The position numbers and the translations under genes are program-made. Positions 23,300 through 25,090 of a DNA stretch of 64,000 nt are shown here, piece by piece. How positions within the stretch are numbered: the stretch's first letter is position 1; each line of letters begins with the position of its first letter. A model generated the notes under the pieces. It did not search any database. It was not told the origin of the DNA and saw only the letters and a list, made by a program, of their open reading frames with translations. Source of the stretch: Dehalococcoidia bacterium (GTDB taxonomy: Bacteria; Chloroflexota; Dehalococcoidia; Lucifugimonadales; UBA3495). The DNA lies in assembly GCA_963666415.2 (NCBI GenBank), contig CAXXPD010000003.1:144961-208960 (forward strand), in the 5' to 3' direction.

Positions 23300-23417
23300 T
23301 GGCTTACTCCGCGCTCCGTCTTCCTTCCCAAATCTGATGATATTCTCACCAATCCTTCCGACTGACGTCAACTGCCTCTTGATCCGCGACACCGCAACTG
23401 CCCTCCCAGAGCTTGGG

Positions 23418-24939
23418 GGTAGTGACGCAGTTTGAAATGGGGTATCAGAGAATCCTATAGTACCTGTGCTGGCTGTCGGCATTTGGGAATGGTGCCTTTC
23501 CTGATGTGGTGGAGCGTGAATCACAGGAGGGAGACATGGTAGCCGTCGCTTGTGTGGTTCTTGGCACAGAAAGTGCTCTGGCGCTGGGAATCTGCGCTCC
23601 CAGTAGTTCTACAGGCGACCATACGCTGGTCGTTGGTTGCCTGCTGGAGTCAGTTGCGTGGTCCTGGAGGTTGGTATCTGGAGAGTTCGGTGCCAGAGTC
23701 CTGTTCGATGAACCGCATCATGTTGTCGACGGTTTCCATGATTCTCCGCAGGACTTCTGCCTCGTCGGGCAGGGGGTCTTGTACCCCTTCGTACGGGATA
23801 TCGATTGCGTAGTCGTTCAGGAACGTGAAGTCGTTTGTTCCGAGAGCCGCTTGTCCTTCAGGGAAGGTCCGTATCACTTCTTGGAGGTCGCTGATGCTGT
23901 GACTACGTATCCACGCGTTGTCTTGGCCATCTTCGTAGTCCATATAGGATAGGAAGCCTTTCATGGCGTTTTCGAGGGCCCTCTGGAAGTGGAATCCTAC
24001 TTCTTCATACCCGAGACCGGCTTCTAGATTGTTCTCGGCAGCCAGGATCTGGCGTTGGTAATTGGTGAATCGTTGCTCGATGTCCGGCCAGTTGTTGGGT
24101 TCTGTGTCAGGGTACTGGTTTCCGTATCCGGTTGCTTCCCCACTCATGTTGATCCCTTCCTTGAGTGCCGAGTGTGTCAAGTGGGTTCTGGCCTGACGGT
24201 AGTATTCGAAGTCTTGCAGGCTGTAGCGTACTAGGTCGATCTTGACCGGTCTTCCGTAGATTTCGGTTGCCATGGCTTGGCCGGTCTGGAGGGCTTGTTG
24301 ATATTTGGCTCTGGTGTCCCGGTGTTGTTCCGCAATTGTGAGGACGTCGATGTCGGATTGGTTCGTCCAGTCCCCGCGTGCGCGTGATCCGAACAGGAAG
24401 GCGTCGTCGGGAGAGATGATGGCTACCATGGTGCGTGCGATGTCGAGCGCGCTTGGATCATATTTGAGCAAGTTCGTCATGGTGATGGTTCCTCTGCCGC
24501 CGGTGGTTTGCTGGCCTGCCTCGGGCACCGTAGCGGTGGTTGTTGGAATGATGGCTTGCTGATTGAGCGTTTGCAGCTTTTGTTCCTTGGGCAGTGGGTG
24601 TTGACTTTGACTACGGCTCCTATTGGGCCTCTTGGTCTATGGTCCAGTCATTTCGCGATTGGTCCACGTCGGGGTGCGGTTGACGCTGGCGTTTCGTGTT
24701 TCAGTAAGGTGATTCGCACTTCGGGTAGACGTTCGGTTCGGGGAGTTGGCTGAGCCGGGTGCCGTCAAGCGCGCCTGGCGAGTGTACTAAAACTGGATGC
24801 CGAAGGACGGCAACGGTAACGTTGCGGCGAATTCGGTTGTCGTTCGGTCGGTAAGTTGGCTGAGCCTTGATTTGGATGGTAGGCGTAGCTGGGTTACTAT
24901 CCGATTTTCTGATACCCCATTTCAAACTGAGTCACTACC
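23418..24939 (-). mobile_element. transposase-less mobile cassette (MIC/MITE-like, 1522 bp) carrying an MNT-HEPN gene
   Basis: 37-nt terminal inverted repeats GGTAGTGACGCAGTTTGAAATGGGGTATCAGAGAATC (35/37 match). AGCTTGGG is duplicated at 23410-23417 and 24940-24947. An uninterrupted paralogous site lies at 57132-57139. Confidence 0.8.
23650..24528 (-). CDS. nucleotidyltransferase (MNT) - HEPN fusion protein
   Basis: FLFGSRARGDWTNQSDIDVL is the minimal NTase motif; the C-terminal IRSHSISDL is HEPN-like. The start is probably the Met at 24480, preceded by AGAGGAA. Confidence 0.75.
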   Translation of the reverse strand: MPEAGQQTTGGRGTITMTNLLKYDPSALDIARTMVAIISPDDAFLFGSRARGDWTNQSDIDVLTIAEQHRDTRAKYQQALQTGQAMATEIYGRPVKIDLVRYSLQDFEYYRQARTHLTHSALKEGINMSGEATGYGNQYPDTEPNNWPDIEQRFTNYQRQILAAENNLEAGLGYEEVGFHFQRALENAMKGFLSYMDYEDGQDNAWIRSHSISDLQEVIRTFPEGQAALGTNDFTFLNDYAIDIPYEGVQDPLPDEAEVLRRIMETVDNMMRFIEQDSGTELSRYQPPGPRN

Positions 24940-25090
24940 AGCTTGGGGGTGTGCTTGGCATCAAGGGTGATTCTGAGTAAACAATCAGCCTGATCTGCAC
25001 GGGGTAGCGTCATTAATTTCAGCAGGCTGGGCCGGCAAGTCTATGATCAAGTCTACAACCTCTCTCACTCGCAACGTAATCGAACGAGGG

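Follow-up and report, generated by a model that had tools for sequence, protein, structure and literature searches.

A transposase-less cassette with an MNT-HEPN gene in a Dehalococcoidia genome, probably derived from an IS1-related transposon

Mobile insertion cassettes (MICs) are presented in a review, with reference to De Palmenaer et al. 2004, as modular units that have the ends of an insertion sequence (IS) without its transposase, carry one or more passenger genes, are mobilised in trans by a cognate IS of the genome and produce target duplications of the length made by the parent (PMC3129680). The term tIS (transporter IS) is used, in the same review and in a second one that both cite Siguier et al. 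2009, for IS copies with passenger genes in the IS1595/IS1 group and other families, which blur the line between IS and transposon (PMC3129680, PMC7986276). For proteins in which an MNT nucleotidyltransferase domain is fused to a HEPN domain, a 276-aa fusion on Shewanella mobile elements is known as a single-chain toxin-antitoxin (PMC13000451), and HEPN domains fused to MNT are usually devoid of the RNase residues and act within modifying enzymes as the part that binds the substrate (PMC3710099). Here we describe a stretch of 64,000 nucleotides from a Dehalococcoidia bacterium (hereafter the window; assembly GCA_963666415.2, contig CAXXPD010000003.1, positions 144,961 to 208,960), which contains at 23418-24939 an element of 1522 bp with inverted ends and a single intact gene for such a fusion. 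MICs, tIS and MITEs (miniature inverted-repeat transposable elements) are established concepts, of which the element is another instance (PMC3129680, PMC7986276). With high confidence we regard it as a MIC, that is, a non-autonomous derivative of a passenger-carrying IS1-family transposon (tIS) of Dehalococcoidia: it has the ends of an autonomous element, no transposase of its own, a target duplication of parental length and a passenger gene.

The cassette and its target site

The left end of the element is a 37-nt sequence at 23418-23454 (GGTAGTGACGCAGTTTGAAATGGGGTATCAGAGAATC), and its inverted copy at 24903-24939 shows two mismatches (35/37). A repeat finder extended the arms to 45 nt with 91% complementarity (41/45), giving a cargo-side inverted repeat (IR) at 23418-23462 (plus strand) and a transposase-proximal IR at 24895-24939 (minus strand), named after the parent described below. 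A 32-nt version of the end was found at just two places in the 64-kb window, and none of 100 dinucleotide-preserving shuffles matched it. Directly outside the tips, the 8-bp target-site duplication (TSD) AGCTTGGG can be read at 23410-23417 and 24940-24947. The sequence around the element occurs twice in the window: positions 23141-23420 are 98% identical to 56863-57142, and the right flank (24940-25091) is 89-97% identical to 57132-57271. In a global alignment of the locus with the element removed against the 57-kb paralog, the sole gap at the junction was one 8-bp copy of AGCTTGGG. Positions 57132-57139 are the unoccupied target site, with a single AGCTTGGG and no insert. Owing to the GGGGGT that follows the 8-mer, the junction could in principle move by up to 3 nt; the 8-bp placement was chosen because it alone keeps the ends symmetrical and because 11 other units of the family also show 8 bp. 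The inverted ends, the duplication and the empty site had been proposed in an earlier, sequence-only reading made by a model without database searches, and the alignment places all three exactly to the nucleotide.

The G+C content of the element is 53-57%, and that of the sequence to its left is 64-72%. The cassette lies about 120 bp upstream of the start codon of an uncharacterised minus-strand open reading frame (ORF) at 22835-23297 (MTTASIPELRKAH…), of which the 57-kb paralog has a second copy. The right flank of the 23-kb locus has a 12-bp tandem duplication (ATGATCAAGTCT, 25047-25058) that is absent from the paralog. Each IR contains an inward-facing sigma70-like match (TTGAAA-18-TATAGT at 23432-23461 and TTGAAA-18-GATAGT at 24925-24896), and both hexamers fall on positions conserved across the ends of the family. 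These sites could be promoters, transposase-binding sites, or both. No Rfam match to a structured RNA was obtained in 22500-25500 at E <= 1.

Partner transposase, parent and creating deletion

The same 37-nt end (0-2 mismatches), together with the 135-bp subterminal sequence, adjoins a gene for an IS1-family DDE transposase in seven related loci (L018, L019, L021, L030, L033, L041 and L042). In the first five of these, the 3′ end of an ORF of 347-387 aa that reads toward the tip lies about 40-70 bp inside the end. L041, which comes from the same sample as L002/L003, and L042, a TARA scaffold, show the same arrangement of end and transposase, and L008 shows it in interrupted form. The predicted protein has an N-terminal helix-turn-helix (HTH), a DDE domain and a C-terminal InsA-type zinc ribbon at residues 320-350 of 357. 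It matched Pfam DDE_Tnp_IS1 with 25.0 bits in L019 and with 23.9 and 20.7 bits in two other copies (cut-off 24.1), NCBIfam transpos_IS1 with an E value of 2e-19, and the NCBIfam IS1/IS1595 zinc-binding domain with 31.7 bits (cut-off 28). A protein search with the transposase returned 3877 homologues, many labelled "IS1 family transposase" by their sources, with about 45% identity over the HTH and DDE parts. On these matches, the partner transposase appears to be a divergent single-ORF enzyme and a distant member of the IS1 family. Since it is a single ORF with a C-terminal ribbon, it represents a variant branch rather than classical IS1. It may resemble the single-ORF ISMhu11 subgroup. The ends had also been compared with those of IS6/IS26 (GGxAxTGxxGCA), and this candidate was dropped, as the linked transposase gave E values of 0.005-0.012 for IS6 versus 2e-19 for IS1.

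All the full-length units encode, in addition, a conserved 65-aa CxxC...CxxC zinc-ribbon protein, whose gene stands at the head of the cargo and is divergent from the transposase gene. Comparison of the loci gives the parent the following order: IR, cargo slot, 65-aa zinc-ribbon gene, divergent promoter region, transposase gene reading toward the other IR, and IR. Cassettes or MITEs and transposase-bearing units occur side by side in the same genome or sample: L011 is accompanied by L018 and L033 in isolate 65858962, and L002/3 by L041 in sample ERZ25766727. Among the contigs retrieved, no direct parent with both the transposase and the MNT-HEPN type of the window (type A) was found.

The cassette contains remnants of both backbone genes. 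Inside its right end, 135 bp (24939 to 24805) align with the transposase-proximal end of L030 at 80.7% identity (E 3e-30). They include the final codons of the transposase gene: tblastn placed 23 aa (residues 353-375) at 24796-24864, and this piece is the second half of the C-terminal zinc ribbon. This remnant and the subterminal sequence together occupy 24792-24894 (plus strand). The 65-aa zinc-ribbon gene is represented at 24748 to 24626 (minus strand) by residues 24-64, with 68% identity to the protein of L041/L042 (tblastn, E 6e-14). It has lost about the first 23 codons, the first CxxC included, and keeps the 3′ two-thirds of the gene. At the DNA level this remnant is homologous to positions 1581-1689 of the L030 unit and to L041 7672-7824. 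At the opposite end, the subterminal ~100 bp (to about 23527) resemble the transposase-distal ends of L031 and L034.

Since both gene remnants are still present, the extent of the creating deletion can be read off. In L041, the region upstream of the transposase gene (7575-7824) corresponds to window 24493-24745, and 9238-9404 corresponds to window 24792-24939; between the two L041 blocks, about 1.3-1.4 kb are absent from the window. By this block alignment the deletion junction is at 24746-24791. One internal deletion thus took the 5′ part of the zinc-ribbon gene together with the divergent promoter region, and of the transposase gene it spared only about the last 30 codons. Both 37-45-nt ends and the passenger gene came through it intact, and the deleted form then inserted at several sites with 8-bp duplications, one of them at 23410-23417.

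Other copies of the cassette share this structure. L001 matches the full 1522 bp between the outer IR tips at 95.3% identity and has unrelated flanks; L005, with 89.6% identity between the tips, is flanked by an 8-bp duplication of its own, CAGCATTC. These close relatives (95% and 90% identical) occupy other sites in one metagenome sample. L002/L003 has the same ends in a unit of 2586 bp (4478-7063) with an extra gene pair of AF2212-like/PIN (VapBC-like) type, and L004 has lost one end. All of these type-A cassettes (window, L001, L005, L002/3 and L004) have the same zinc-ribbon truncation, with about aa 24-65 left, so that an identical deletion junction is found at at least five different sites, two of which have distinct intact TSDs. 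The same truncation at different sites means that the deleted form spread after the loss of its transposase. The shared junction points to one deletion followed by spread, and this comparative evidence implies mobilisation in trans. The classification of the element as a non-autonomous cassette of the MIC type, made in the sequence-only reading, is supported; lacking a transposase gene, it must rely on an enzyme provided in trans.

Two of these copies show further features. In L002/L003 the additional gene pair sits in the cargo slot, between the zinc-ribbon remnant and the MNT-HEPN gene; this unit has no target duplication, and one of its two outer flanks (GCAAAACG) also borders the 712-bp unit of L010. 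In L005 (5374-5549), the cassette duplication CAGCATTC lies directly against the tip (…GAACTGTTAC) of an IS66-type element that is also present in the window, an arrangement that may hint at insertion next to the ends of other IS.

The mechanism that we propose is as follows. A full-length relative elsewhere in the same genome would supply the transposase in trans. The enzyme would bind the conserved inner part of the ends (TTTGAAATGGGGTATC) and cleave at the GGTAGTG tips, and it would then join the tips to a target opened by cuts staggered by 8 bp. A chromosomal copy may have been the source of the passenger gene, which would be kept for some benefit to the element or its host; its most plausible role is that of a self-regulating toxin-antitoxin or of a defence-type nucleotidyltransferase.

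Related units and the MNT-HEPN passenger

One genome per species was scanned with a degenerate core of the end, and fuzzy matching of the 37-mer then placed each end (IR pattern GRMNCANTTTGAAATGGGGTRTC). The scan yielded 31 blocks, all in about 15 metagenome-assembled genomes (MAGs) of Dehalococcoidia/Chloroflexota, and the same ends were also present on several metagenome contigs. The search for further copies, which had been named beforehand as a check on the cassette, was thus positive. IR-bounded units span from 153 bp (a MITE) to 66.6 kb, and 12 of them have perfect 8-bp TSDs. End pairs within one block are 153-164 bp, 681-712 bp or about 1205 bp apart, and half of these pairs (6/12, the window included) show a perfect 8-bp duplication.

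Near the transposase genes of L018, L019, L021, L030 and L033, no second IR was detected by local alignment; the missing partner ends were found 10-67 kb away. A comparison of the outer 8-mers of all the single ends uncovered six long-range partners, against a chance expectation of about 0.02 TSD matches (about 1200 possible end pairs x 1.5e-5 per pair). Two of the units are on OZ244805.1: one of 10.0 kb at 2525216-2535228 (L018:5216 to L013:7228; TSD AGGGTGCT) and one of 16.4 kb at 2163754-2180154 (L033:3754 to L015:4154; TSD GTTGCGAT). CBDBNT010000004.1 has a unit of 46.9 kb at 116580-163488 (L034:4580 to L021:3488; TSD GTAAGAGG), and CBDBMT010000002.1 has the unit of 66.6 kb at 232115-298756 (L029:115 to L030:2756; TSD CACCGGTG). 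The remaining two are each split between two contigs, in RHO3_bin_54 (L028:6230 and L019:6623, at least 45 kb; TSD CCTACGTC) and in S34_283 (L032:805 and L036:2333; TSD CTGACACC). Both end regions of the RHO3_bin_54 unit are the same as those of the 66.6-kb unit, at a different site and with a different duplication. The long-range pairs look like very large IS1-family transposons. The 8-bp TSD is hence common to the window element and 11 other units, including the transposase-bearing ones of 10.0, 16.4, 46.9 and 66.6 kb.

MITE-sized derivatives with the same ends are located at L022 7604-7767 (164 bp), L023 6834-6986 (153 bp) and L035 4054-4738 (685 bp); those of L023 and L035 have perfect 8-bp duplications, and the derivatives with TSDs have no cargo. 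A second cassette of about 1205 bp, independently derived and with the same ends, was found at L009 2346-3552, L011 3293-4498 and L020 738-1942 and in L025 and L017. It arose by a different deletion that kept 167 bp of the transposase-proximal end, and it carries another MNT-HEPN type (type B); the copies in L011 and L020 have perfect 8-bp duplications.

The cargo of larger units differs. The 10-kb unit (L018/L013) encodes a type I restriction-modification (R-M) system (HsdR and an HsdM-S fusion) and a His-Me finger protein besides the IS1-type transposase, and L041 encodes a Mrr/ResIII giant protein. Cargo of the conflict or defence type thus recurs across units. In L031 (979-2750), the transposase-distal family end is followed by a 455-aa TnpB/Cas12f-like ORF (OrfB_IS605 and Cas12f1-like_TNB), which is either cargo or part of a nested IS605-type element.

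The passenger of the window cassette is encoded by a minus-strand ORF at 23650-24528, in which the ATG at 24480, preceded by AGAGGAA, is the likeliest start; the resulting gene (23650-24480, stop codon included) encodes 276 aa. The protein contains GSRARGDWTNQSDIDVL and RSHSISDL and matched Pfam NTP_transf_2 (35.1 bits, cut-off 21) and HEPN (24.2 bits, cut-off 22), together with sub-threshold NCBIfam matches to the MntA and HalB nucleotidyltransferases. A large protein collection contained 82 homologues. The other internal ORFs (81, 74, 57 and 148 aa) matched no Pfam family, and tblastn with the family transposase gave only the 23-aa remnant. The statements of the sequence-only reading that the sole convincing ORF encodes an MNT-HEPN protein and that no transposase ORF is present were therefore confirmed; its claim that the cassette carries only this gene is right for intact genes and has to be amended for the truncated transposase and zinc-ribbon genes.

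Versions of the gene, distant or equally close, also occur in loci without such ends (L006, L038, L039 and L040). In L039 and L040, blastn showed about 89% nucleotide identity confined to element positions 212-1112 (window 23621-24521, minus strand), i.e. to the gene itself, and no inverted ends were present within 10 mismatches of the 37-nt consensus. Because the gene is found outside the repeats, it is regarded as a captured module in a mobile backbone. It is intact in all copies, and dN/dS between copies is 0.10-0.24, which indicates purifying selection.

The backbone is associated with four paralogous MNT-HEPN fusions that share 26-30% identity with each other: type A in the 1.5-kb cassettes of the window kind, type B in the 1.2-kb cassettes (L009, L011, L020, L025 and L017; 26% identical to the window protein), and types C and D beside the transposase in L019 and L021. 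The GSx10DxD motif is present (GSRARGDWTNQSDIDV), with G31, S32, D43 and D45 invariant, as is the third acidic residue, D82. Residues Q166, E170, N171, H194 and Y230 are kept in types A-D. In the R-x4-6-H RNase motif of HEPN, the arginine is not conserved among the four types: H194 is invariant, and an arginine is found at -2 in type A and at -1 in type B and is absent in type D and P0011, with no arginine 5-7 residues upstream; an alternative active site may exist. Y230 is a candidate acceptor of nucleotidylation, by inference from its conservation.

An AlphaFold2 model of the protein (pLDDT 88.6) gave only weak whole-chain Foldseek matches, to ANT(9), AadA, ANT(4′), LinB and the Hailong protein HalB (E 1e-3 to 1e-2, TM about 0.4); taken by domain, it matched MNT antitoxins and HEPN proteins. 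In a sequence comparison with the PDB, only the nucleotidyltransferase motif matched, with no significant HepT or MntA match beyond it. The protein did not match a curated ANT/Lnu family model, with NCBIfam ANT_9 reaching 11.8 bits against a cut-off of 340. The cargo may follow either precedent, that of the toxin-antitoxin or that of the modifying enzyme.

The surroundings of the cassette also contain defence and mobile genes. A Hma-type defence system occupies 8740-20814 on the minus strand, in which PADLOC recognised HmaC/DUF499 (17644-20544), a HmaB/DUF1156 methylase (12567-15545) and a PLD+SNF2 helicase (HmaA/BrxH/DrmD-like, 8740-11598). At the head of the system stands a gene for a 65-aa zinc-ribbon protein (20617-20814), with 46% identity to the small backbone protein of the transposon family. 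The window is saturated with IS. Two identical DDE_5/IS701-like copies (3605-4945 and 21052-22392), at least four IS256 copies (25091-26492, 32008-33385, 39487-40857 and 51586-52966), three IS66-family copies (28685-30139, 30578-32005 and 33661-35155) and an IS66-family fragment (56378-56862) were recognised; the IS256 copy at 25091 adjoins the right flank of the cassette and looks frameshifted. The three remaining intervals (45320-46714, 58100-59491 and 60781-62199) account for a DDE_Tnp_1_4 element, an IstB-like ATPase and a further DDE_5 element. A reciprocal empty site was seen at 56862/56863 versus 23140/23141, where the 57-kb paralog holds an IS66-type end (…CTCTGAACAGTTAC) and the 23-kb locus reads through. 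Each paralog is consequently an unoccupied reference for the insertion in the other.

Competing explanations and comparison with known systems

Several points weigh against the derivation from an IS1-family transposon. The assignment of the transposase is borderline in Pfam, with two of the three scored copies under the cut-off, and its 70 bits for NCBIfam transpos_IS1 are below the curated cut-off of 100. The transposase is a single ORF, in contrast to classical IS1 with its InsA/InsB′ frameshift. Taken by itself, the sequence of the IRs speaks no more for IS1 than for IS256. The IR pairs of L001, L002/3, L009, L010 and L022 have no TSD, which calls for secondary rearrangement or for ends of different units having been wrongly paired, an error demonstrated for L032 only. 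A search of the 64-kb window by tblastn with the family transposase did not find a cognate enzyme, and current mobility in this genome is unproven. Many transposases prefer to act in cis, which bears on the efficiency of mobilisation in trans.

The sequence-only reading had favoured an IS256-type derivative moved by the IS256 transposase of the window. The intact gene (32058-33272) is real, its product being a Mutator-family transposase (Pfam Transposase_mut, 451 bits), and IS256 elements make 8-9-bp duplications. The shared tip is real as well: the IS256 right end (GGTAGTGTCCC; longer comparison with GGTAGTGTCCCGTCAAGTAGTGTAAAAG) starts with GGTAGTG like the cassette and agrees with it at 9/12 positions at the tip. 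Over the whole end, however, the agreement falls to 18/37, and the left end matches less. The first nucleotides of the cassette end agree at 10/12 positions with the right inverted repeat (IRR) of E. coli IS1, GGTAATGACTCC, found under IS1 transposase annotations in 4963 E. coli genomes, which scores the same or better (10/12 and 18/37); similarity of the ends therefore does not identify the partner. In the same way, the GGTAGTG tips and 8-bp TSDs agree with the IS1 family and do not discriminate it from IS256. What decides is that the ends are linked to an IS1-type gene and that the cassette holds a remnant of this gene. None of the 42 related loci has cassette ends beside a Mutator-type transposase and seven have them beside an IS1-family one, and no IS256 copy of the window contains the conserved inner IR core TTTGAAATGGGGTATC. 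The proposed IS256 chemistry and partner thus did not hold up, and we judge this origin very improbable. Nearly the same can be said of the idea that the 57-kb site is a once-filled copy, duplicated with its segment after the insertion and then emptied by precise deletion. Nothing supports it directly; it is formally conceivable with two paralogs in one window. Such a deletion would have to remove exactly the element and one 8-mer, a loss that is rare for DDE elements, whereas no additional step is required if the element entered one of two copies that already existed, and the reciprocal IS66-type fragment, present at 56862/56863 and absent at 23140/23141, argues against it too. We give it hardly any weight.

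The two other alternatives concern the present state of the cassette and the role of its gene. The cassette might be a fossil that was inserted once by the route described and is now immobile for want of its cognate transposase. There is a single copy and no such enzyme in the 64 kb, the flanks are 2-3% diverged from the empty paralog, so that the insertion need not be recent, and the two ends differ at 2/37 positions. Yet both ends keep every position that is invariant in the family, the TSD is perfect, relatives 95% and 90% identical lie at other sites in one metagenome sample, and transposase-bearing relatives are common in related genomes; we regard a fossil as a minor but real possibility. 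The MNT-HEPN protein, in turn, might belong to the machinery of the element itself, as an addiction module that would penalise loss of the element or as a transposition regulator, which would account for its retention in cassettes of independent origin. Its four diverged versions (26-30% identity) are tied to the same backbone, the gene is under purifying selection, and the single-chain toxin-antitoxin of Shewanella has the same length (PMC13000451). However, other full-length units do without it (R-M in L018/L013, Mrr/ResIII in L041) and the MITE-sized units with TSDs carry nothing, from which it follows that movement does not require it. The type-A gene also exists outside the element, the arginine of R-x4-6-H is not conserved, and fused HEPN domains are usually judged inactive (PMC3710099). 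We consider a role in the machinery unlikely. The preferred explanation remains the MIC derived from an IS1-family transposon.

A wider interpretation is offered as tentative, at a little less than even weight. The cassette may be the small end of an undescribed IS1-related transposon family in Dehalococcoidia, probably marine or sponge-associated, with units from 153 bp to about 67 kb. Its members would share one IS1-type transposase and the 65-aa zinc-ribbon gene and have a cargo slot refilled with conflict genes (MNT-HEPN four times, PIN/antitoxin, type I R-M and Mrr/ResIII). Such a family would build and shuffle defence islands, and the MNT-HEPN fusions would be addiction modules that keep transposase-less derivatives. 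For the window, the analysis explains an orphan insertion from sequence, in its origin, parent, creating deletion and spread, and the link to IS256 can be dropped. The IS1 family, usually seen as tiny IS free of cargo, appears to have a Chloroflexota branch that behaves as a transposon family, with MITEs, cassettes and very large units, and with cargo dominated by toxin-antitoxin-like and restriction genes. This would be a concrete route for moving and clustering defence genes in poorly studied, uncultured bacteria, and the four diverged MNT-HEPN fusions form a natural set for working out the roles of the fused protein.

Among known systems, Tn3-family derivatives, i.e. Tn3-derived inverted-repeat miniature elements (TIMEs) and Tn3-type MICs, were rejected. 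Tn3 ends are about 38 bp long and start with GGGG, and the duplication is 5 bp; the ends here are GGTAGTG with an 8-bp duplication and no linked Tn3-type transposase.

With regard to the passenger, FhepTA of Shewanella (PMC13000451) is similar in its 276 aa, its N-terminal MNT domain with GSx10DxD, its C-terminal HEPN domain and its location on a mobile element. In FhepTA and the type VII MntA-HepT systems, HEPN is of the DUF86 type, whereas here it is of Pfam PF05168 and the RNase arginine is not conserved. The antibiotic nucleotidyltransferases ANT(9), AadA/ANT(3″)(9), ANT(4′)/KNTase and LinB, which also combine a nucleotidyltransferase domain with a helical HEPN-like domain, were the best whole-chain fold matches of the predicted model, at a weak level and with 9-14% identity. 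Such enzymes have been derived from MNT-HEPN fusions with inactive HEPN (PMC3710099).

With regard to the element, MIC231 (IS231, Bacillus cereus) and MITEs likewise have the ends of an IS, no transposase, passenger genes and a duplication of parental length. The parent of MIC231 is an IS4-family IS of Firmicutes and that of the window cassette probably an IS1-family transposon of Dehalococcoidia, and here, in contrast to described MICs, the deletion can be mapped by two remnants of backbone genes. Like tIS, the units are single-transposase, IR-bounded elements with genes unrelated to transposition. The tIS listed for IS1/IS1595 are a few kb long, and the units found here reach far larger sizes of 10-67 kb, with perfect 8-bp duplications.

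E. coli IS1 shares with this family the DDE_Tnp_IS1 domain, the IS1/IS1595 zinc ribbon, GGnnnTG ends and an 8-bp duplication; in the IS1 family, the ends are GGnnnTG and the duplication is 8-9 bp. It differs in its InsA/InsAB′ frameshift as opposed to a single ORF, in an N-terminal rather than C-terminal zinc ribbon, in ends of about 23 nt as compared with 37-45 nt, and in having neither the 65-aa zinc-ribbon gene nor a cargo slot. What goes beyond textbook IS1 is a transposase with a C-terminal zinc ribbon, a conserved small zinc-ribbon gene, units of up to about 67 kb with perfect duplications and the repeated capture of MNT-HEPN and restriction genes.

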